Shown here: in pieces, positions 52,153 to 63,291 of the stretch
How positions within the stretch are numbered: position 1 is the stretch's first letter
How the letters are laid out: the number at the start of each line of letters is the position of its first letter
Assembly (NCBI GenBank): GCA_963806535.1
Contig: CAWDYC010000005.1
Span: 96,001 to 160,000 of the forward strand
Reading direction: 5' to 3'
Source: Candidatus Bathyarchaeota archaeon
GTDB taxonomy: Archaea; Thermoproteota; Bathyarchaeia; Bathyarchaeales; Bathycorpusculaceae
DNA length: 64,000 nucleotides
Notes under the pieces: generated by a model
The model's input: only the letters and a program-made list of their open reading frames with translations
What the model was told of the DNA's origin: nothing
Database searches by the model: none
Translations under genes and position numbers: made by a program

Positions 52153-52659
52153 TTAGTTCTCGTTGAGTTTTTCATTAACCTTTAAGTCAATTTTGCCGCA
52201 TTTGGGACAAAAATAAACTATTACGGGTAACGCTTCCTTCCCAAGTTTTACTGAATTATTGTCAGCAGATTTTTGATCCATTCTTTCCAATCCATCAATT
52301 CTAAACTCGGTTCGAGTTTGAGACATCTCAACATTACATAAAGAGCAACAAGGAACTATGGCGTTTTTCGTTTGGTCTTCCTTGGTTTTGTTGTCATCGA
52401 TAACTGTGCCTTCGACATCGATTTTTTCAACCTCAATTGGTGAGGAAATATTTTCCGTATTCCCTAAAAATCGGCAGGGCGTTGCACAATCTAGTACAAA
52501 CAAGCAATGATAGCAACAAGACATCTTCTCTTCATTTTTACATCGAACCTGCCTGCTTGCCTTCGCTCTCTCGCTATCAGTAACAGCTAGACATAATTTC
52601 TCACTTGTTAAATATTCACAGCAATTGGCTATGTCTGACAAATTACTTTCTTCCTGCAC
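52153..52659 (-). CDS. Cys-rich protein with a C-terminal zinc ribbon
   Basis: Motifs CCEY...CCYHC...C, CSLC and CPKCG. Confidence 0.6.
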   Translation of the reverse strand: MQEESNLSDIANCCEYLTSEKLCLAVTDSERAKASRQVRCKNEEKMSCCYHCLFVLDCATPCRFLGNTENISSPIEVEKIDVEGTVIDDNKTKEDQTKNAIVPCCSLCNVEMSQTRTEFRIDGLERMDQKSADNNSVKLGKEALPVIVYFCPKCGKIDLKVNEKLNEN

Positions 52660-52854
52660 TATTCAAGACAAGGATTTCTCCTATGTGTGTTTTGGTTCAG
52701 AAACTCCGAAAAATGGTTGAGATTAAAGCACAGTGTAGCTTCTCAGGTCAGCATTCTACTCGGTGAAATAAATAAATGCTCTTCTCACGAAACAATACGG
52801 GAAATGGTGAAAATAGTGGCTTCAATGATCTTTGAACTTGTGAAAATAGAGTTG

Positions 52855-53385
52855 TTAGCGCTCGTTTGCGGTTATGAGGGTGTTGAAACTGAAATTGCTT
52901 ATGTCCAGTATGTCGTGGGACACAGTTAGGTTCAGTTGAATGGGAATCACTTGTCCTGGGCTGAGGATTTGACCTGAGTAGTTCCAGTTTAGAGAAATAT
53001 AGTTCGAGGAGGCGGATGGGGTCCAATTTGTCATTTCCAAAGACAATGAAGCCTTCGAATTCATTTCATTACTAATATAGATCATTAAGGTATTGTTTGA
53101 ACCAGCTTCTATGTTTCCCCAGTTGAGTGAGAGCGTTCTGTTGGTGCAGGCTTGATCCCAGTAAATCCCCACTCCAATGCCGTTCACGGAGCTCGCATGG
53201 GCAACGATTTTGTCCGACTCGAAGACAGTGGCGGCACAAAAAACAAAGAGAGATAATAAGCATATTACTGCTAGCATTATTTTTCTGTGAGCATGATTTC
53301 CTGTCGGAATAGTAAATGTTTGTCTTAAGTTTTTTATTCCTTTGTTGATTTTGTGGGGCAACTTCCTGAGGCTTTTATTAGACAT
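52855..53385 (-). CDS. Membrane-anchored Ig-like hypothetical protein
   Basis: TM segment then GVGIYWDQACT...LNWG...LNWNYSG. Confidence 0.65.
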   Translation of the reverse strand: MSNKSLRKLPHKINKGIKNLRQTFTIPTGNHAHRKIMLAVICLLSLFVFCAATVFESDKIVAHASSVNGIGVGIYWDQACTNRTLSLNWGNIEAGSNNTLMIYISNEMNSKASLSLEMTNWTPSASSNYISLNWNYSGQILSPGQVIPIQLNLTVSHDILDISNFSFNTLITANER

Positions 53386-53696
53386 TCCAAATCCCCCAAT
53401 AGTATTATATCATAATAAACCATATAGTGATGTATAAACAAATGTGATTGTATTGACACTCCAACAGTCTATTCTGCGAAAGTTGTCTCAGAAAACCAAA
53501 AAAGAAAAAATACGAATTAAAACGTTGACCTTGTAGTTGATGTGCTGGCCATTATCTGGAATTTTCCTCTCATTAAGTGATTTTTCCTAACAATCAGTTC
53601 AACCTTTCACAGGGTTCGAAGTATATCTACACTGAGCGATTAAAAAAATCGCACATATTATTAAGTCGTTTTTATTGTAATATTTTATTGGTATTA

Positions 53697-54098
53697 ATGC
53701 AGTCTCTAACAGGCAATAAGAGTAGGCTTACGTTTTGGACTTTGATACTGATTGGAATTTTTCTTTGGCTTAGTGGGGTTCCTTTGGCAGCATATGATTA
53801 TGGCAAAACATATCCGTATCTAATTTTGGGATTTCTTTTGATTGCTCTTGGAATATTCATGGTGGCTGTCTCCGCAATTCAAAGAATTAATCAACGTGTC
53901 GCCCAAATAATTATTGGTTTGTGTGGTCAGATTCTTTTTGGATTAGTAATATTTGAGATTCCGTTACTACCTGCATTTCCCTTTTCACCCTTCAATTTTC
54001 ATACATACTCAATCATTCTAGGTGTTTTAGGGATGGCTCTTTCAATAGAAAGCATATTTACGCTCAGTAAAAATAGAGAAACTCCGCTACAAAAATAA
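53697..54098 (+). CDS. Four-TM membrane protein
   Basis: ATG at 53697 and four hydrophobic segments. Confidence 0.65.
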   Translation: MQSLTGNKSRLTFWTLILIGIFLWLSGVPLAAYDYGKTYPYLILGFLLIALGIFMVAVSAIQRINQRVAQIIIGLCGQILFGLVIFEIPLLPAFPFSPFNFHTYSIILGVLGMALSIESIFTLSKNRETPLQK

Positions 54099-54170
54099 CT
54101 CTAATCGGGGTTTATGCATTTTCTCATAGGAAAAGATGCTGATAATAATGAAAATCTAAGTGTGCAGGCC

Positions 54171-54230
54171 TGAAGCTGGGATGGGGAATTGAGCCTTCAC
54201 CAAAGAAGAGATTCACCCGCATTTTCTTTT
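54171..54230 (-). repeat. Degenerate tRNA-Cys 3'-end copy, type A (att-like)
   Basis: TGAAGCTGGGATGGGGAATTGAGCC versus tRNA TGGAGCTGGGGATGGGAATTGAACCC, followed by GAGATTCACCCGCATTTTC. Confidence 0.75.
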
Positions 54231-54660
54231 TTTCATTTTAACCTAAAAAACTATTTGCAATGAGAAAACAAATTTGGCATATATAATTCTCTCTTACCAT
54301 TGTCTAATCCTTTTATGGCGCAACCCGCGCGATTATTTTTATTTAACAGCCTGCATTAGAGCATGTTGCCTGTGAAGATAAACACGTCAGTCGGAGAAAG
54401 GATTGGTAGTCCTATCGATGATGTCAGTTAACGAATTCTGAGGCACACGAAAACAACAAACAAAGCGGCGTTGACTGATGAGCAAGTAACAGAAAATTGA
54501 AGCCGAATGAATCAGATTCATTGTGAGAAATTCGATTAAGAATGTTGTATAAACCGGTGCTGTTGTAGATGGACAATCCTCGAATTCTCTTAATGAGTGT
54601 CTCAGAAGTGCATTCCCTGATGTGCCGTCCAAGTTAGAGTTGAAACTCTTGTGTGCGACA

Positions 54661-54751
54661 TGGGAGCTGAGGATGGTTTTTTGAGTTGAGGTGCGATTCC
54701 ATTCTTCGTTTAGGTTTTTATGAAATGTCTTGCATGTGTTTACGTCTTGAA
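54661..54751 (-). repeat. tRNA-Cys 3'-end copy, type B, with a conserved arm of about 75 bp
   Basis: GAGCTGAGGATGG then TTTTGAGTTGA...CGATTCC...CGTTTAGG; 42/51 ungapped identity with 58529-58579. Confidence 0.75.
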
Positions 54752-54831
54752 TACTTGAATGAGAGGTTTAGTCAACACTGAAATCCTTTAACTTAACGTT
54801 TTCACATTATCCTAAAAGAGGCATAAGTTAA

Positions 54832-55605
54832 GTGGTGAGTAAAAAGAAAAAGCGCTCAAGCATCTTTTTTGTAACTCTCTGCCTTTTCGTTTTCATAGGT
54901 TGCTTTGCAACAGGAGTTTTAATGCGACAAAATACTGTCCTTTTAATAAATCACTTACCACAGACTAATCTATTAGTGCAGCCAACTAATTCACAGCCTA
55001 AGATGCAATTGGGACCAAATTTGGAGCCATTGAGTGCATTCTTCTTAGACATGAATGGTGCCGCGTCTTCATATGCGAGTTTAAGCACATCAATAACTCA
55101 CAATGGGCACGCAAGTATCCGTTTAGCTGCTGATCGTATTCGAGGAACACGGGAAGATGATGGTGCCTGGATAAATGTTCATCCTGGTGACCACATATAT
55201 GCTGGCGTTTGGGCTAAAACTGATCCGAATACGGCTAATGGTGGCAACCCAGACATTTACAGAGGCGCACGTGTTGGCATAGATTTATGCGCTCAAACTT
55301 CTGCAGGCTACGGTGTGGTTGATGGAATACCGCATGACTACACAATAATAAACGGATTACCTGTTAGTCAATGGCAGAATACCCCCGTCTCACGGTTTCA
55401 GCTTCCTTACGATAATGACTGGACGCTTATTTATTGGAACATAACAGTTCCAGACAACTATTACGATAGGTACAATCCTGGAAACGAAAATATCGCTGTA
55501 ACTCCAGTTCAAATAAATAGTTTAGTGATGTGGTTTGATGCTAGAGAATTGACTGATGGACCATACGTTTACTTCAGTGATCCTTTTTTGTACGTTAATC
55601 CATAA
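54832..55605 (+). CDS. Membrane-anchored extracellular protein, possible carbohydrate-binding sandwich
   Basis: Basic N-terminus plus TM; motifs YAGVWAKT, WTLIYWNITVP and VYFSDP. Confidence 0.65.
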   Translation: MVSKKKKRSSIFFVTLCLFVFIGCFATGVLMRQNTVLLINHLPQTNLLVQPTNSQPKMQLGPNLEPLSAFFLDMNGAASSYASLSTSITHNGHASIRLAADRIRGTREDDGAWINVHPGDHIYAGVWAKTDPNTANGGNPDIYRGARVGIDLCAQTSAGYGVVDGIPHDYTIINGLPVSQWQNTPVSRFQLPYDNDWTLIYWNITVPDNYYDRYNPGNENIAVTPVQINSLVMWFDARELTDGPYVYFSDPFLYVNP

Positions 55606-55773
55606 TGGAGAGTTGGTTTTCAGGCTAACCATGGCCTGGTAGAACCGTTGTTAACGGAAGGAGATAACATAACAATGCTTAAGTGGTCTAGCTTCTTAGG
55701 ATTTATTGCTGTTAGAGGCATACAAACCATAATTTTTTGTGATCATCAGAGTCAACGTAGAACTTGAAGAATA

Positions 55774-55834
55774 GAGCTGAGGAGAATTGAACCCTCAACT
55801 ATTTGGAGAGGTCACGCCAAGATCCTTTCTTTTT
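55774..55834 (-). repeat. Degenerate tRNA-Cys 3'-end copy, type A
   Basis: GAGCTGAGGA----GAATTGAACCC followed by GAGAGGTCACGCC...TTTCTTTTTT. Confidence 0.7.
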
Positions 55835-56280
55835 TGCTTCCAGTATTCTTTATGGTTTGATTGATTTTGCTTTTGCCTTAAATCTTAATTCGCATTTTTT
55901 ATTACTCAATTCTGAGTAATTTTGGGGGATACCCTTTTTGGAAAAAGACTTTGTGTTGGTTGTTTTTAGTCAGTGGCCTTTTTTGCGGCTTATTTGGTTT
56001 GCGGATTTTGGGGTTTGCAGGTTTTCTGCGTAACGAATTAGTTGATTTGAAGCTAACTCTTCAATTTACGCCGCATTGTTTTTTGGGAGAGGCTTAAATT
56101 GCAGTTAGAAACGCTTAAGCGTGGTGAAGAATGGTTAGAGTTCTTTGCAATGTGAAGGAACTAGACGTGAATTATGCGCTTATTTGCGCTAATTATGCGT
56201 GAACTTGCGTGGATTTGACGCTTGTTTGCAGGCGACCAAGACTTGGCGCTTTTTGACATTATAGCCAAGCAGCTTCTGCA

Positions 56281-56943
56281 TTATTCTGTTACAATATGAG
56301 CGATTAGGCGAAGTTCGGCTTTTCTGGAATGAGTTGCCAACGTAGATTTGGTTAGGTTGAGCTTTTTTGCCAACTGTCTAGAGCTTATTCTTCTGGGCGA
56401 GTCATAGTACCCGAGCCTGTAAGCAGCAATTAAGACTTCCCTTTGTTTTTCTGTTAAAATGTTAAGAGGTGAATCCAGCGAAAACCGTGCGTCGGTCAAC
56501 GAGACAATCTTGTAGCGCATTTTCAGTTTCTGGAAATCCTCAAAAACCTTGCCCATTTGGCTTGCGCTTCCTATAAAAGTTAGCCTAACTTGCCTTTCGC
56601 GAATTTCGCGGGAAACAACATATGCGATATCGGCTCCTGGCTCTTTGGAGATAGTCTTTTGCGGTTTGGGGAGTTTCTGTTTAACGAAGACCACGTATGC
56701 TCCTGTTTTTTCTCTTTCGATGAGCTTCACTTCAAAAACATTGTCGCTAATTAGCCTCACAAAATCTTCAATGTTGGGTACTTCATCCTCAAGCTCTATT
56801 CTCCCTATTGCCGTCATCTCTTCTTGGTCCTGTCTGAGGACTTGCAGGATTTTCAACATTTTCACTTTTTGCAAGCGTGACACATCTACACTCTTATTTT
56901 TTCTCAATTCGTTAATGGAGAACTCTACGATAAGCCTACGCAT
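56281..56943 (-). CDS. Bacterio-opsin-activator-type (HTH_10) transcriptional regulator
   Basis: Motif LTEKQREVLIAAYRLGYYDSPRRISSRQLAKKLNLTKSTLATHSRKAE. Confidence 0.9.
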   Translation of the reverse strand: MRRLIVEFSINELRKNKSVDVSRLQKVKMLKILQVLRQDQEEMTAIGRIELEDEVPNIEDFVRLISDNVFEVKLIEREKTGAYVVFVKQKLPKPQKTISKEPGADIAYVVSREIRERQVRLTFIGSASQMGKVFEDFQKLKMRYKIVSLTDARFSLDSPLNILTEKQREVLIAAYRLGYYDSPRRISSRQLAKKLNLTKSTLATHSRKAELRLIAHIVTE

Positions 56944-56987
56944 GATATCCACATCATATACCAAATCATATATATTTTTTGTATTAG

Positions 56988-57001
56988 GCGGACATGTCCG
57001 C
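56988..57001. promoter_or_regulatory. Perfect 14-bp palindrome, probable operator
   Basis: GCGGACATGTCCGC between the divergent HTH_10 and amidohydrolase genes. Confidence 0.65.
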
Positions 57002-58127
57002 TAAAAAACTAATCCGATTCAACGCATTCTTAATCATCAAGGAGCCAACAAAAATTTCTGAGCGAATTGACGTACATCACCACATTGTTCCAAAAGAATA
57101 CGTTGACGCCCTATCCAAGAAAGGAGTAAAAAAAGGTCTTGGAGTTCAACTTCCAGGCTGGAACGCAGACAAAACCCTCGAGATTATGGACAAAAACGGA
57201 ATTTCCGCATCCATACTTTCAATTTCTGCACCAGGAGTTTACTTCAAAGACAAAGACCCTTCGCTGGAACTTGCCAGAAACCTATCAAGACAGACAAACG
57301 AAATATGCGCCAAATTGATCAGTGATCATCCTAAACGGTTCGGCGCTTTCGCCACTTTGCCCCTTCCTGATATCAACGCAGCTTTGGAAGAACTAAGGTA
57401 CGCTTATGAAAGGCTGAAACTTGACGGAGTGGTACTGCTATCGAACTACGATGGTTACTATCTGGGCGATTCAAGGTTTGACAAGCTGTTTATGGAGCTA
57501 AATCGCCGAAAAGCGGTCGTGTTCATTCACCCAGCTACGCCGCCAGGCATTGAAGAATCGCATCTTGGTCTCCCAGAATCGATGGTCGACGTGTGCTTCG
57601 ACACGACAAGAACCGCTTTTTCCCTAGTCGTGAATGGCATTACTAAGAAATGTCCTGATGTGCGCTTTATCCTAGCTCATGCAGGAGGCGCGGTTCCTTA
57701 CATGGCCGCAAGAGTAGGCATTACGTCAGCTCTCCTTGCAGAAAAAGGCGGCGTAGGACCTTTCATAGCAGATGGGCTTGGAAAGATTGCGTCCGTTTTC
57801 CCGAAATTGAAAGAATCCATGCCCGACCTTCTTAAATACTACTTAAGGTTCAAAGAAAACGTATTACCCGAAGGTCCAGATTTTTACCTGAAGAAGTTCT
57901 ATTACGATACTGCTCTTTCAGCTTCCCCTCACACTTTTGCTTCCCTTCAGACACTTGTCGACAGTTCAAAAATCTTGTTCGGAACCGACTACATTTTTGC
58001 AACACAAGATGCTGTACCCATAACAATTAAGGGCATAGAGGAATACTCAGGCTTCAACGAAAAAGACGTAAGAGCAATTGAGAAAGAAAACTCTTTAGGT
58101 CTGTTTCCGAGGTTCAAAGGCAGTTAA
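56994..58127 (+). CDS. Amidohydrolase_2 family protein (aromatic-acid/ACMS decarboxylase-like)
   Basis: Motifs IDVHHH, VVFIHP, FDTTR, ILAHAGG, YYDTA and ILFGTDY; true start uncertain. Confidence 0.88.
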   Translation: MSAKKLIRFNAFLIIKEPTKISERIDVHHHIVPKEYVDALSKKGVKKGLGVQLPGWNADKTLEIMDKNGISASILSISAPGVYFKDKDPSLELARNLSRQTNEICAKLISDHPKRFGAFATLPLPDINAALEELRYAYERLKLDGVVLLSNYDGYYLGDSRFDKLFMELNRRKAVVFIHPATPPGIEESHLGLPESMVDVCFDTTRTAFSLVVNGITKKCPDVRFILAHAGGAVPYMAARVGITSALLAEKGGVGPFIADGLGKIASVFPKLKESMPDLLKYYLRFKENVLPEGPDFYLKKFYYDTALSASPHTFASLQTLVDSSKILFGTDYIFATQDAVPITIKGIEEYSGFNEKDVRAIEKENSLGLFPRFKGS

Positions 58128-58210
58128 CATATTTGAAAGAATCCTGAGTGATTCTTAACTTTCTTTTTGATGTAAGTAATGTTTGGAGAACAGATTTTGG
58201 TTTTGGGTTG

Positions 58211-58270
58211 TGGTGATGCCGCTGGGATTTGTACCTCGGATAAGCCGGAGATTACCCGTATTTTCCTTTT
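58211..58270 (-). repeat. Highly degenerate type A copy
   Basis: GGGATTTGTACC...GAGATTACCCGTATTTTCCTTTT matches the arm of the 54171 copy. Confidence 0.55.
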
Positions 58271-58528
58271 TCTATTATTTGAGGTTTGAGCGTTAACTTT
58301 CATCTACACATAATGCAAAATATTAGCAATAAGCGCATAAGAAACACAATAATGTACACGCAACCTGGTCGATTTCCAAGAAGACGGTCATGTCGCAAGA
58401 ATTGCCCCTCTGAAAATGAGACATGCCAATTACTTGAAGCCAACTTCGAGTTTGTGTGCAACTTCGGCTATAAAAGTTTTCAGAAAACGCAAGTAGCATT
58501 TTTTCAAAGTATATGAGTTTATGCTAAA

Positions 58529-58617
58529 GAGCGGGGGATGGACTTTTGAGTTGAAGTACGATTCCCTTCCACGTTTAGGCTTCAAAGAAGTGGTTTGTAT
58601 GCTCATTACCTTGAATT
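58529..58617 (-). repeat. tRNA-Cys 3'-end copy, type B
   Basis: GAGCGGGGGATGG plus an arm homologous to 54664-54751. Confidence 0.75.
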
Positions 58618-58883
58618 CATCCAGTTGGAAAACTGGCTTATTAGAATGAGCCTTTTAAGCTGAGCGAAGTATTGTGTGCCTTTTTGCACGCAAAATACAC
58701 ATTATCTATAATCTTTTCCCTTTTTTCTTCACAACGGATTTCGTTAATAGTTGTTGGAAAAATTATCGAAACGAATCTTTTGTTAGCTCTGAATATGTCT
58801 CGCATTTTGAGTTTTCCAACAACTTTAATAGCTCAAACGATGTGCCTAAAAATACATATCGCTAATTGATTTGAGGTAATTAA

Positions 58884-59576
58884 ATGATATACCTAGGAAT
58901 AGATGACACCGACATTTTGGGTTCTAGAGGCACAGGCAGGCTCGCCAGAAACATCGCCGCCGAGCTCTCAAAGAAATACCAAATATTCGGTGTCACACGC
59001 CACCAACTTCTAGTACACCCAGACATCCCATTCACTTCACACAATAGCTGCGCTGTAGTTCATACTGAAACATCACCAACAGACATGGAAGAAATATTTT
59101 GCACCACAAGAAAGCTAATGCTGGAAGATTTCATTGAAGGAAGCGACCCAGGATTAGCTATAGCAGATAGTAATCAGGTGACGCCAGGAACAGTGGCATT
59201 TGGTCTAGATGCTAAAACCATCGTCGTCACTCAGGAACGAGCCAGAGAAGTGGCAAAAAATAGCAAAATCCGTTTTGAAGGTTTAGGCGGAACCGAAGGA
59301 GGTATAATAGGTGCAATCGCAGGCGTTGGTTTAGCTTCTTTGAAAAATGACGGCAGGTTCCTTCTGAAAGGCAAAAATAGAGAGCTCTCAGGAGTTCGGT
59401 CAATTTCAGAAATCATTAACTCAGGCATAGACGAAGTGCTTACGCTTCAAGGAGAGACGATTAATGAAGGAAAAGTGCAGATTCCAAAAAACGCCACCCC
59501 TTCTTTCATTCAAGGAAAAGCGGTGCTTTTCGTGGAACAAAACGAGGATTATTGGATTGCACTTAAGAGGGCCTAA
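58884..59576 (+). CDS. Stand-alone TiaS-N-terminal/DUF1743-like protein
   Basis: Motifs IYLGIDDTD...GTG, RHQLLVHPDIPFTSHNS, SDPGL and GIIGAIAGVG; lacks the OB and zinc-ribbon domains of TiaS. Confidence 0.75.
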   Translation: MIYLGIDDTDILGSRGTGRLARNIAAELSKKYQIFGVTRHQLLVHPDIPFTSHNSCAVVHTETSPTDMEEIFCTTRKLMLEDFIEGSDPGLAIADSNQVTPGTVAFGLDAKTIVVTQERAREVAKNSKIRFEGLGGTEGGIIGAIAGVGLASLKNDGRFLLKGKNRELSGVRSISEIINSGIDEVLTLQGETINEGKVQIPKNATPSFIQGKAVLFVEQNEDYWIALKRA

Positions 59577-59579
59577 AGA

Positions 59580-60358
59580 TTGCAGTTTAAGTATAAGCTG
59601 GCGGCTGCTTTTGCGATTTTTGGTTTGCTGATTTTAATAGTCTTTGCTGTTCAATGGGTTTACTTAAGCCAGCCAGCAAACATCCTCGGAGGAAATTATT
59701 ACCTGGATCAAACGTTTTCTCAAGCAAGTTTTCTTTATGGTCCTCAAGCATGGATTCCCTATGCGTCTAAATTGCCAGTTATGCCAGGGGTGGACACTAA
59801 CAGTAACGGAAACTTCTATGTTATGTTTGTCGATTTGAATGCCACATCTAATTTGAACGCTACGTTTCCCTGTGTAAGGGTTGATTACTCATTTAGTGGT
59901 TTACATGGGACAGCAGCTTTCCATGTTTACGGATATATCAAAGATAATGGGGGATTTTCATGGACGAATCGTGTGGATGGGCTTGGGGCAAGCGGTTTCT
60001 ATGTAACAGCTCCAGCATTGGATCGTCCAGCATTTCGGCAAATGCCCAGATGATGTCTGACATCGACCACATATACGTTAAGGTTTCAAACAAAGAAGGC
60101 GCTGCATTCAATGATTTTGGAAATAACACTTATTTTATGAAATTTGACAAGGATGGTGGCGGCTTAAATTCTCTCCACCTTACAACTGACCCAAGAAATC
60201 CCAGCGGCAACGTTACCACAACAAGCAATACGAGCGGTACTTTTTATGTGGATTTTACGGGTGGCCGAGTTCAGGATGATTTAGTTCTGTTAGTTGCCGT
60301 TAATGGTACTATAGATCACAATTTCAAATTAAATCTAAAGTCGAGTGTGCCAGGGTGA
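59580..60358 (+). CDS. Membrane-anchored surface protein, one frameshift near 59990
   Basis: ORF 59580-60053 continues into 59960-60358 (GGGLNSLHLTTD...GRVQDDLVLLVAVNG). Confidence 0.65.
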
Positions 60359-60367
60359 GATGAGGCT

Positions 60368-60928
60368 ATGAAGCGTCAGAAATATTTTTTGGTCTACGAG
60401 GTCTCTTTCTTGTCGCTTATGGCTGCCCTTGTTTATGTTTTCAAGGCTTTCTTCAAAACTCCGATCGGTTTGCCCGCCCATACTGCGATTGTGTGGGTAA
60501 TCCCTTTCATAATAGGAATTGGTTTAACAAAGAAGTTTGGTGCAGGCATCTACATAGGCGTGCTTTCAGGCTTGCTTCTAGGTGTGCTGGGAATGGCAGA
60601 TAAAGGCTTTTTCGAAGTATTTGAGTATGCAGCGATGGGAATCACCATGGACATTTTAGCTTTGGTGTTTAGAGGTCATTTGGGAAATATTTTGGTCGGC
60701 TGCGTTCTCGGTGCTTTCGGAAGTTTTGATAAAACAATGGTCAATTATTACATAACGAGTCTAATAGGCCAGAATGCACACATACTTCTAGTAGGAATCG
60801 GCGTTGCGGGAACTTCAAGTTTAATTTTTGGAGGAGCAGGCGGCATAATTTCAGCGATAGTTGTCAACCGTACGCAGCATTTGCATTTTCCAAACCGAAC
60901 TAAGAAAAAAGAAAAGATTAAGACTTAA
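60368..60928 (+). CDS. Probable ECF transporter S-component
   Basis: 186 aa with 5-6 TM helices; LMAAL, TPIGLPAH and KFGAGIYIGVLSGLL. Confidence 0.7.
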   Translation: MKRQKYFLVYEVSFLSLMAALVYVFKAFFKTPIGLPAHTAIVWVIPFIIGIGLTKKFGAGIYIGVLSGLLLGVLGMADKGFFEVFEYAAMGITMDILALVFRGHLGNILVGCVLGAFGSFDKTMVNYYITSLIGQNAHILLVGIGVAGTSSLIFGGAGGIISAIVVNRTQHLHFPNRTKKKEKIKT

Positions 60929-60946
60929 TTCAAACCTAAACCAGAT

Positions 60947-61777
60947 TTAGGTTTGACTTGATTTTCTTTTGTAAGTCATTATTGCTATTGTTGCGGCCAT
61001 CAGTACGATTATGGCAATAGCTGCAGCTGGAAATTCTGGAACAGTGGGCGAGGGTGATGGAGATGTTAAGGGAGTTGGGGTAGGTGTAGGCGATGTAGTT
61101 GGTGTTGGAGTTGGAGAAGCGGTTGGAGTAGGTGTTGGTGTCGGAGTTGGCGTGGGGGTGGCTGTTGGAGTCGGGGTAGGAGATGGGGCTGTGTCAGTTA
61201 CATTCACTTGTGTTATGCTTCTTCCGCCCGAACCATCCATAAGTAAACCTTCCTGACCAACAATTACTAGTCTGGGAGCTGGAAGAGAGCTGCTGGGCAG
61301 AGTAGTGCCGTTAACTTGGTAAGCCAAAATTAAGGTGACAGGCTGAACTTGATTCTGCACTGTTCCAGTTAGGTTATTGTACGTTGTGTATTGTGCGTTG
61401 AAGTTGGTGCCACTGTTTACCATATCATAAGTAAAATTGTTAGTGCCTTGACCCGTAACTGTCACATTGCAGGTTGAGGTGATTCCGCCCACTTGATTAC
61501 AAAGATAAAGCAGCGATACACCCACCCATAAACCACTATTGATGACATGTTGATTAGGTTGGTAGAATCCACCATACATGGTGACGTTTGGCATAGCTTC
61601 TAATTGAGTTAATGTATAGTTTATGCTTGTTCCAGTGTATCCAGTTACCTGTATAGTTGCTTCTGTCTGTGCTTTCGCTTGAGGCGAACTGCCTAAAGCA
61701 GCTGTGACGGTTAGCGTAATTATGAGTAACAAGAGAAAAGCTGTATGAGTGGGCTTGTTCGTGAGTTTAGTTAACAT
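60947..61777 (-). CDS. Secreted protein with a molybdopterin-oxidoreductase-like fold, PT linker and PEF-CTERM-like tail
   Basis: Motifs [27 protein letters not shown] and PRLVIVG; (TP)n linker; VPEFP, TM and KRK. Confidence 0.75.
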
Positions 61778-62116
61778 TTATGGTTTTTCTCCTTTTGATT
61801 TGGAAGTTGCCGAGATGTACATAAAAACATTTCGGGGCAAATCTATAGATGTTTTTTTTGACTTTCGAGATCAAAGAAGACTATGGACACTATAGAAAGT
61901 TACGTCGGAGAAAGCTATGAGGAATCCCATTTTTGAAGCTGTTAAAGAGCGGATTACTGAGCCTGTAGGGAACCGAACCTTAAACATCCATGTCAGTAAT
62001 TGTACTGGGGATGGGCTTTTACAAAGATGTTGTCAATTCCATAGATGACGATTCTTTTCGGGTTCGTACTTGTACCCTTAAGAAAAATAGATATTTGCGG
62101 AACTAGACTCGAACTA

Positions 62117-62142
62117 TGGAGCTGGGGATGGGAATTGAACCC
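62117..62142 (-). repeat. Exact 26-bp direct repeat of the tRNA-Cys 3' end (attR-like)
   Basis: TGGAGCTGGGGATGGGAATTGAACCC is identical to 63216-63241. Confidence 0.92.
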
Positions 62143-62346
62143 TAACACGCTGGCGACATCGCCAATTCTTAATATTCTATGCAGCCTTTTTCTCTTTTTT
62201 TGAATCTCTTCCGTATAATGGCGTATCCCAGCTAAGTTGTGCTATCGCTTTAGGTGGCAATCGGTGGCTGACTTGGTTCTTTCTGTATTCCCTTTTTTTA
62301 CAAAAATTCTTAAGAAACGCCCGCGCATAAAAGGTGTGGTATTCGA

Positions 62347-62763
62347 ATGGTTGAGTATTACCAATTACCTTTGCCGTCCAGAATTCCAAAATCGATAATT
62401 ATATTAGTGCTTTTACTGGTCATCGCAGCAGTAGTGGCTATTCTGCTTTCTCCTTTTCTACCACATGGTCCCGCTGGAAGCCTATTTGTAGTTTTAACTT
62501 TGGGGATTTTAACCCTAATTTCCTATATCATCGCCCGCAGTACAGGGCTCAAAGACCAACGCTCTCCAAGACAAAAACGGGTAAATACTCTGCTATGCTC
62601 TGGTTTTGCGAGCTTTTTTAGCTATGCCGCTTTAGCAGTCGCGTTGATGGGTCACCCTATGCATTTTCCGTCTAATCTGCCGCTATTATTAGCCGTAGTC
62701 TTAGCTGCTGCTTCAACCGCGTTGATTGCAGACAGTGCTTCAAAGAAGATTGGCTTGTACTAA
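62347..62763 (+). CDS. Four-TM membrane protein, the only clear gene between the exact repeat and tRNA-Cys
   Basis: 138-aa ORF with four hydrophobic segments. Confidence 0.65.
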   Translation: MVEYYQLPLPSRIPKSIIILVLLLVIAAVVAILLSPFLPHGPAGSLFVVLTLGILTLISYIIARSTGLKDQRSPRQKRVNTLLCSGFASFFSYAALAVALMGHPMHFPSNLPLLLAVVLAAASTALIADSASKKIGLY

Positions 62764-63215
62764 CTGACGCATAGTCAAGCCTAAATGTTGCAATAGCAAA
62801 CCAAAGCATACGATAATGGAGCCCCACTATAGGGGGTAATTAAAACCGCGGCTGGAATCGTTATAGCGGGTTTAAGCTAGATTTGTATATTATCAGCAGC
62901 ATACGGACATGGCGCTAACTCAGTCATCAAGAATACCGGGATTTGAAAACCGTACGTTCCACCAAGGGGATTTACTCTTTCTCCATTTAAAAAATATTTA
63001 AGGAATACCGAGTGACTAAAATGCTGTTCTGTTTCACCCCTTTACCCAAAAGTTGGGAGTGCGGTCTTCTAAGTTAACACATAAACGCGGTAGACGAAGT
63101 ACTAAATCAGAAGAGGTAGGCAGTCAATGACAGACGGCAGCGAATTTGGGAAGAACCAAACCTTCTTAATAGAAGGCTCAAAGTAGAAGCCGCCAGAGGA
63201 TGGGAATGCATACGT

Positions 63216-63291
63216 TGGAGCTGGGGATGGGAATTGAACCCATATATAACAGCTCTGCAGGCTGTCGCCTGAACGATTCGGCCACCCCAGC
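63216..63291 (-). tRNA. tRNA-Cys (GCA), CCA encoded
   Basis: Cloverleaf: acceptor GCTGGGG/CCCCAGC; anticodon arm ACAGC-CTGCAGA-GCTGT; T arm ATGGG-TTCAATT-CCCAT; discriminator U then CCA. Confidence 0.93.

Follow-up and report, generated by a model that had tools for sequence, protein, structure and literature searches.

The tRNA-Cys locus and its repeats

The window analysed here is a stretch of 64,000 nucleotides (nt) from the genome of a Candidatus Bathyarchaeota archaeon (C5:96001-160000 of the genome denoted G000, which comprises 2.95 Mb in 12 contigs and is 92% complete), and the subject is the array of small gene-bearing units that ends at its tRNA-Cys(GCA) gene, the sole tRNA found in the window by ARAGORN and Rfam. 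Other genomes are denoted by G numbers, contigs by C numbers and array loci by L numbers. The array (Table 1) is the product of serial site-specific insertion at the tRNA-Cys with decay of the older elements. Beside remnants of integrase-carrying elements it contains units of a family named type B, which have conserved ends.

The terminal 26 nt of the tRNA recur exactly at 62117, and this 26-mer has two matches with up to 3 mismatches in the window versus none in 100 shuffles. The 11-mer CTGGGGATGGG also occurs at 62005; with at most one mismatch it has 3 matches where 0.33 are expected, a number reached in 0 of 100 shuffles. Degenerate copies on the same strand are found at 54171 (77% identity to the 26-mer) and at 55779-55795 (17 nt, 82-88%). 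An earlier sequence-only reading of this DNA had pointed out these repeats, and they are confirmed, with the exception of the copy that it placed at 58211, which is 95% identical over 21 nt to the 3′ end of the tRNA-Pro(GGG) of the same genome versus 69% identical to the tRNA-Cys 26-mer. The two classes of flanking arm described in that reading also exist. Type A arms are located at 54197, 55796 and 58237 (all three copies in the nhmmer training set), and the 13-nt cores at 54663 and 58529 have a common type B right arm of 73 nt with 77% identity (nhmmer E 4.9e-17 and 8.9e-30, both copies in the training set). Two classes do not suffice, as the 62117 site has an arm of a third kind, named type C.

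An insert bounded by a direct repeat of a tRNA 3′ end is characteristic of elements integrated into tRNA genes by tyrosine integrases, and this pattern is present both here and in relatives. Halves of split or permuted tRNAs were ruled out as an origin of the fragments, since these are degenerate and show no folding of tRNA parts, and since ARAGORN and Rfam give one tRNA. Elsewhere in the same genome, orphan copies of 3′ ends lie downstream of many tRNA genes, including tRNA-Val(TAC) (31 nt at +9 kb and 23 nt at +11 kb), tRNA-Arg(TCT) (34 nt at +1 kb) and tRNA-Ser(CGA) (24 nt at +21 kb), and tRNA-Arg(CCT)-like fragments are clustered at C3:386-390 kb. G000 has thus undergone pervasive integration at its tRNAs.

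The type B junction

In five relatives (G016, G002, G019, G023 and G001) the sequence left of the 62005 core (61968-62004, within the arm named armL), the core and the arm at 58542-58660 (armB) are contiguous, and the sites at 58529 and 62005 are therefore the halves of one attP-like site, now flanking a 3.5-kb unit. The window copy of armL (61961-62004) is recovered by nhmmer with E 2.2e-12, this copy being in the training set. The complete junction, armL-CTGGGGATGGG-armB, comprises roughly 170 nt, and a 175-nt query from G016 detects it in 52 of 120 genomes of the genus, several of which have multiple copies 1-6 kb apart. Both arms are about 75-90% identical across species. A scan for the exact junction pattern returned 21 stretches from a collection of species genomes, 20 of them from metagenome-assembled genomes (MAGs) of Bathyarchaeota/Bathyarchaeia and one from an 'uncultured archaeon', and another 43 stretches from metagenomes. 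In the genome studied here the junction arms are confined to the tRNA-Cys locus.

The 34 junction copies that were aligned comprise 21 with armL and 13 with other left flanks, and the ends of the arrays are hybrid. At left ends, (T)GGAG, the core and armB follow one another, so that the left part is derived from the tRNA, while at right ends (G091, G002 and G110) armL and the core are followed by AATTGAACCC, which belongs to the tRNA body. A complete 1.5-kb unit with both hybrid ends is present at the metagenome locus L101. Such ends are the hallmark of armL-core-armB having recombined site-specifically with the tRNA-Cys end inside the 11-bp core. In a further kind of junction, found in the window, G020, G110 and the metagenome loci L095, L116 and L122, the core and armB are preceded by the 3′ end of an integrase gene; type B units have therefore repeatedly entered the tRNA while a resident integrase gene lay beside it.

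Three features are recognizable in armB, namely a conserved palindrome CCAGT-N5-6-ACTGG, a TATA-like motif TTATAAAAA that a regular expression detects in 14 of 22 units, and a segment in which part of the core recurs, inverted and imperfect (GGGGATGGG / CCCTACCCC); all three are possible binding sites for proteins. A function of armB as a cassette promoter was considered and dropped, because the first open reading frame (ORF) of the unit is on the plus strand in 11 cases and on the minus strand in the other 11 despite the frequency of the TATA-like motif. A structured RNA in the junction was likewise rejected, as RNAalifold gave just -2.4 to -9.3 kcal/mol for the alignments of 34 and 21 copies on both strands.

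One armB copy departs from this pattern. At L128/L129 (G085 C1:236.6 kb) the core, GCGGGGGGTGGG, resembles tRNA-Leu(TAG) more closely than tRNA-Cys, the copy is immediately followed by a tRNA-like fragment with a type A arm, and an integrase at tRNA-Leu is 23.5 kb away. Judging from this copy, the arms may be joined to cores from more than one tRNA. It was also the lone candidate on a single contig for an autonomous type B element, and it was rejected as such, because the integrase is at tRNA-Leu and an A-type site lies between integrase and armB.

Contents of the type B units

Twenty-two distinct complete units extending from armB to armL were collected, 21 of which measure 1,055-6,075 nt and one 17,082 nt. 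None of the 22 contains integrase-like sequence in tblastn searches with E up to 1e-3, for which four integrases of relatives and 16 ORFs around the recombinase hits of the own genome served as queries; metagenome loci were checked for integrases by tblastn only. In Pfam searches of 116 + 74 + 92 ORFs from relatives' loci, four ORFs matched PF00589, all of them beside the tRNA-Cys gene or a Cys core and none between armB and armL; the 92 ORFs, which come from 16 further array loci, included no PF00589 match. One type B unit contains a DDE transposase, belonging to an inserted insertion sequence.

The cargo of these units includes arsenic-resistance genes, Na+/H+ exchangers, PAS histidine kinases, CheB/CheR fusions, Znu and Cbi/Nik transporters, a nitroreductase, an NB-ARC-TPR protein and a helicase, and the same cargo recurs in differing unit contexts, as illustrated by a segment of 1,952 nt (88% identity) common to a 2.2-kb and a 5.5-kb unit. 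The genomes G000 and G016 agree in their outer type A unit and in the stub next to the tRNA, with unrelated units between them. In agreement with what the sequence-only reading had anticipated for a comparison of relatives, gene content thus differs between conserved landmarks and the breakpoints coincide with the repeats.

The cargo block 58812-61856 of type B unit 2 in the window is single-copy in G000 and occurs without arms at other loci in G001 (84% identity), G020 and G023. The G001 copy lies about 140 nt downstream of tRNA-Val, and no second tRNA-Val fragment was found around it; the G023 copy is situated between homologues of C7:83465-84500 and C7:84954-85662, which contain neighbouring genes in G000. 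The protein encoded at 60947-61777 combines a weak molybdopterin-oxidoreductase-like domain with a long Pro/Thr-rich linker and a C-terminal membrane anchor, and the linker DNA gives many weak cross-matches in relatives.

Integrase remnant and integrase family

With the integrases of G005, G008 and G002 as tblastn queries, their last ~62-64 residues (about 354-418) were found to be encoded at 58304-58492 with 31-39% identity (E 7e-9 to 3.5e-6 against the 11-kb region and 2e-6 to 2e-4 against the whole genome). At the DNA level, 58440-58541 aligns with integrase 3′ ends that abut tRNA-Cys in G003, G004 and G019. The ORF at 58286-58516 is therefore the wreck of an integrase C-terminus. The terminal residues FRKRK and the stop persist, although out of frame, about 32 nt ahead of the core, and the integrase genes of relatives end in LFRKRK and a stop 24-40 nt ahead of the tRNA end. 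The sequence from 58542 to 63215 was inserted later than the integrase remnant, between it and the tRNA.

Intact PF00589 integrases of 417-418 amino acids (aa) directly adjoin tRNA-Cys in G005 and G008, where they belong to provirus- or plasmid-like elements. In G005 the next gene after the integrase encodes an MCM-type helicase, and a tail-spike-like gene is present at the same locus. A 33.6-kb element in G121 extends from a 30-nt Cys repeat to an integrase that is 94.7% identical to that of G005. Integrases in their own elements beside the attachment (att) site are thus intact in G005, G008 and G121, and the window has only the remnant of ~64 residues. Partial integrases near tRNA-Cys or a Cys core are a 242-aa copy in G022 and a 163-aa C-terminal fragment in G002, and in G009 a large-terminase gene lies between a Cys fragment and the tRNA. 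The integrase family is represented in 104 of 120 genus genomes, often in multiple copies, and a language-model atlas groups it with Bathyarchaeota integrases.

In integrases of the spindle-shaped virus (SSV) type attP lies within the ORF, and integration splits the gene into Int(N) and Int(C). This type was ruled out for the present locus because the integrase ORFs end short of the core, by 24-40 nt in G005 and G002 and by about 32 nt in the window. A fragment of that type does occur elsewhere in G000, where the sole PF16795 match of the genome (C3:193047-193298, outside the window) lies between tRNA-Val(TAC) and its 31-nt repeat (C3:184736-193859); it represents a second, different integrase type in this genome.

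Units of type C and type A

The left arms of integrase elements in G121, G005, G008 and G014 align with the type C arm at the 62117 site, and about 35 nt beside the tRNA resemble the spacer downstream of the integrase. The C unit is read here as a putative miniature or internally deleted member of the G121/G005-type integrase element family. In G016 and G010 the homologue of 62013/62040-62116 continues directly into the tRNA body and the 1,073-bp unit 62143-63215 is absent, and this unit is therefore an insertion bounded exactly by the 26-nt repeat. The occupied site of the window has its empty counterpart in these two relatives. A 78-nt noncoding piece of the C unit (63037-63114) is 81-82% identical to sites at G000 C4:260047-260124, in G013 and in G004, and a match in G007 is also listed; the G013 match lies about 170 nt downstream of tRNA-Ser(GCT). 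This piece looks like a candidate element-end sequence common to elements at different tRNAs.

Type A arms recur behind near-perfect Cys cores in G002, G009 and G016. The G002 site lies 40 nt past the integrase fragment, and in G009 the left end of the type A unit (54171) runs into the terminase gene; type A arms therefore represent the distal ends of elements that carry an integrase or resemble viruses. Within the 2.95 Mb of the own genome they are found at this locus only, save two weak matches on contig C4. The sequence-only reading had described the array as integrase-free and had counted remnants of large integrase-carrying elements among the findings that would refute its model. The absence of integrases holds for the type B units; the array as a whole contains the remnant at 58286-58516, and the A and C blocks do prove to be derived from integrase-carrying elements.

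Several additional observations concern the outer part of the array. In G009 the outermost stretch (52700-54170) is missing between the homologue of 52153-52659 and the first Cys fragment. A candidate C/D-box small RNA (sRNA) that has C, C′ and D-like boxes and is closed by the terminal stem TGCC...GGCA lies in the outer type A unit, at 54367-54445 on the plus strand; its Rfam match to snoU61 (22.3 bits, E 0.49) is far under the gathering score. The surrounding segment 54331-54447 is 80-86% identical to sites away from tRNA-Cys in G001, G022, G012 and G002, and a minus-strand ORF at 54387-54632 that overlaps the candidate is probably spurious. In the 55774-58210 unit, GGAACTAGACGTGAATTATG at 56157-56176 is 85% like 62099-62118, just left of the 62117 core, with no tRNA core after it, and it may be a relic att site dividing that unit. 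The segment 55787-56239 has no ORF of at least 60 aa, yet it is 73-77% identical to two places in G016.

Table 1. Features of the tRNA-Cys array, listed from its outer end to the tRNA (window coordinates)
Feature	Position	Strand	Remarks
Outermost variable stretch	52700-54170	.	ORFs 52855-53385 (minus) and 53577-54098
Type A unit	54171-54662	plus	Cys-like fragment (54171-54196), arm A, candidate C/D-box sRNA; kept in G009, G016, G020
Type B unit 1, truncated	54663-55773	plus	Core 54663-54676, armB 54677-54790; without armL
Secreted 257-aa protein	54832-55605		In type B unit 1
Unit with degenerate Cys fragment and type A arm (55774-55840)	55774-58210	plus	Sequence, nhmmer, Pfam
HTH_10 regulator	56281-56964	minus	In 55774-58210 unit; Pfam
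Amidohydro_2 enzyme	56994-58127		In 55774-58210 unit; Pfam
tRNA-Pro(GGG)-like 3′ fragment (58211-58236) and type A arm	58211-58277	plus	Sequence match
Decayed tyrosine integrase C-terminus	58286-58516	plus	Spans catalytic-Tyr region; tblastn, DNA alignment
Core GAGCGGGGGATGG (58529-58541) and armB (about 58542-58660)	58529-58660	plus	Left end of type B unit 2
Type B unit 2 cargo	58661-61960	plus	Pfam, every match below curated cut-offs
TiaS-TCKD-like protein	58884-59576		In type B unit 2
Two ORFs	59580-60053, 59960-60358		In type B unit 2
ECF/cobalt-permease-like protein	60368-60928		In type B unit 2
Secreted molybdopterin-oxidoreductase-like protein	60947-61777	minus	In type B unit 2; Pro/Thr-rich linker
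armL (61961-62004) and 11-nt core CTGGGGATGGG (62005-62015)	61961-62015	plus	Right end of type B unit 2
Stub of ~100 nt, diverged armB-like and short armL-like sequence	62016-62116	plus	Directly against tRNA-Cys in G016 (88%) and G010 (75%)
Exact 26-nt direct repeat of tRNA-Cys 3′ end	62117-62142	.	Distal att site of the 1.1 kb C unit
C unit	62143-63215	plus	Left arm, 138-aa membrane-protein ORF, 78-nt piece; no integrase
Type C left arm	62143-62205		Within C unit; palindrome GGCGACATCGCC and T-run
Membrane-protein ORF, 138 aa	62347-62763		Within C unit; weak Pfam membrane-family matches only
tRNA-Cys(GCA)	63216-63291	minus	ARAGORN; Rfam tRNA 61.9 bits; attachment target, 3′ end toward array

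Origin of the array

It is likely that a hot spot at tRNA-Cys has accreted both decayed integrase elements and non-autonomous cassettes, and that the cassettes were probably moved in trans. In this account the tRNA-Cys of this Bathyarchaeia genus would attract tyrosine-integrase elements, and each newcomer would recombine with the intact tRNA end, shoving older elements outward, which would make the segment from 52.7 to 63.2 kb a stack of at least seven units. The units are of three kinds: decayed integrase-carrying (provirus- or plasmid-like) elements, marked by type A or C left arms and one integrase remnant; type B units, which are cargo modules of 1-6 kb with an attP-like junction and no recombinase gene; and stubs. 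The type B units would be non-autonomous and inserted by an integrase acting in trans, and this enzyme would probably come from an integrase element, resident or infecting, at that tRNA. The array in this genome is probably immobile now. Accretion anchored at the tRNA, with the newest and only exact repeat nearest to it, had been proposed in the sequence-only reading and is upheld, as is the confinement of the arms to this locus, apart from the two weak type A matches.

Several observations weigh against mobilization of the type B units in trans. Intact Cys-type elements use a core of 26-30 nt and a different (type C) arm, and the 175-nt query detects no type B junction in G005, G008 and G080, the genomes with the closest integrases. 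The exact-pattern scan placed the junction on 0 viral contigs, and no circular form was found, terminal overlaps being present in 0 of the 43 metagenome stretches. Elsewhere in the genome there are only a copy with 40% identity and 5 stops at a tRNA-Ser, distant PF00589 matches and the SSV-type fragment at tRNA-Val, and no intact close integrase was detected in this 92% complete assembly. Co-occurrence of the integrase family with type B units is uninformative, because the family is present in so many of the genomes. In addition, the tRNA-Pro-like core at 58211 within a Cys array is not accounted for by this model, and nearly all the data come from MAGs, in which repeats can be misassembled.

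An alternative explanation, in which all units including those of type B are decayed, once autonomous integrase elements (cis-mobilizable elements, CIMEs, in the bacterial sense), with no dedicated non-autonomous family and nothing mobilized in trans, seems rather unlikely. The A and C units of the window are clearly remnants, and archaeal elements are described that lose their integrase after integration (PMC8371274). In G110 a 1.6-kb stretch beside the tRNA has an armB left end on one side and an integrase remnant on the other, and the G085 armB shares a contig with the integrase at tRNA-Leu. However, in G085 the intervening A-type site suggests that armB is probably a separate stub, and integrase fragments, which are frequent in the A- and C-type remnants (the window, G002 and G014), are absent from all 22 complete type B units. 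If those units were products of decay, the persistent similarity of their arms between species would also be difficult to explain, as would the 21 of 34 junctions in which armL takes the place of the integrase-proximal arm.

The array had also been called integron-like, a designation that does not hold. As in integrons, small cargo units are stacked serially with a conserved site between them, and different cassettes occur between common landmarks in relatives; moreover, a hairpin can arise by pairing of part of the core with the imperfect inverted copy of it in armB (GGGGATGGG ... CCCTACCCC), and an 'empty' unit of ~100 nt adjoins the tRNA. A true platform of this kind would have a dedicated conserved host recombinase, a fixed site and a platform promoter, and its existence here is very improbable. 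The array differs from integrons in having no adjacent intI, no attI/attC, no common orientation and no platform promoter. Pfam identified no recombinase fixed at the array head among the 19 window ORFs and 282 ORFs of relatives' loci, and the thioesterase and other neighbours are ordinary genes. Integron cassettes end in attC and mostly point one way, whereas the junction here consists of a tRNA-derived core and two arms and the genes show no polarity (11 plus versus 11 minus). The RNAalifold consensus fold is weak (-4.8 to -9.3 kcal/mol), with only the helix of core and inverted core and a short GGG/CCC helix in armL, and the target is a tRNA end, as with ordinary integrases. The idea that the junction is a functional small-RNA or regulatory module and that the arrays arose by duplication or homologous recombination can hardly be credited either. 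The palindrome and TATA-like motif of armB would fit such a module, and parts of the junction look like tRNA pieces in the alignment, but no Rfam family matches, the consensus structure is weak, the aligned copies differ by indels whose lengths are not divisible by three, and the junction is not crossed by any ORF. The hybrid tRNA-Cys junctions located exactly at the 11-bp core in several independent genomes also argue against it.

Relation to known systems and significance

The integrase at this locus differs from the SSV type, which splits on integration. Integrating mobile elements exploiting Xer (IMEX), which reside at dif sites, have no recombinase of their own and integrate in tandem by means of a borrowed enzyme encoded elsewhere. 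The site here is a tRNA-Cys end instead of dif, and nothing ties the arrays to XerA.

Tycheposon islands of Prochlorococcus, as described in the part of the source consulted, receive new elements at a tRNA while older ones are pushed into the island, and they contain scattered partial tRNAs, fragmented integrases and adaptive cargo (bioRxiv 10.1101/2020.12.28.424599). The accretion at a tRNA, the partial tRNAs and the integrase fragments are the same as those observed here. According to the same part of that source, tycheposons carry their own recombinase, whereas in the present arrays one class of unit with conserved ends carries none, and the host is archaeal. CIMEs have lost or lack integration genes, retain attL and attR, and occur in tandem with streptococcal integrative and conjugative elements (ICEs) or integrative and mobilizable elements (IMEs), at least in the sections consulted (PMC5704250). 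Flanking attL and attR sites together with a lack of integration and transfer genes define a CIME, and type B units have hybrid ends and, in 22 of 22 cases, no integrase-like sequence. They resemble the CIMEs of those sections in being recombinase-less, att-flanked and in tandem with integrase elements; in the case of CIMEs, the integrase of such a neighbour is able to act on the composite. However, the CIMEs described there are sporadic decay products of ICEs and IMEs, whereas type B units form a family with a common ~170 nt junction and diverse cargo in 52 of 120 genomes, and no conjugation context is evident for them.

For archaeal integrated elements, re-use of a tRNA site, formation of arrays and loss of integrase genes have been reported, and the consulted parts of these reports do not describe a conserved family of integrase-less cassettes with its own attP-like junction (PMC8371274, PMC6563490). 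No description of such a family at an archaeal tRNA was found in the literature searched, which is not proof of absence. The Bathyarchaeia papers, in the portions consulted, mention proviruses and islands and no such arrays; their supplementary element lists could mention them. Thus, accretion at tRNAs and CIMEs are known phenomena, and the conserved integrase-less family in archaea appears to be new. The type B family is the part of this locus that is worth following up.

Bathyarchaeia are abundant and uncultured, and little is known of their gene exchange. The locus and its counterparts in relatives display a recurrent, sequence-defined stacking of 1-6 kb cargo blocks at one tRNA, and the genes in these blocks are for the handling of metals and arsenic, for sensor kinases and transporters and for redox enzymes, among others. 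Without mobilization of the type B units, the region would be an ordinary integration graveyard. If they are mobilized in trans, they would be, to our knowledge, the first archaeal counterpart of the bacterial hitch-hikers of the CIME and IMEX type, and their junction could be used to search these genomes for flexible gene content. The armL-core-armB junction and the tRNA-Cys end offer a concrete pair of test substrates for an archaeal integrase. A possible, although doubtful, extension is that the type B units constitute a cassette system dedicated to archaea's tRNA-Cys sites, in which integrase-less modules defined only by the tRNA-derived junction are stacked at tRNA-Cys by the integrases of viruses or plasmids and are able to carry chromosomal blocks such as 58812-61856. 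Such a system would represent a parasitic, integron-like route for shuffling adaptive genes in Bathyarchaeia.

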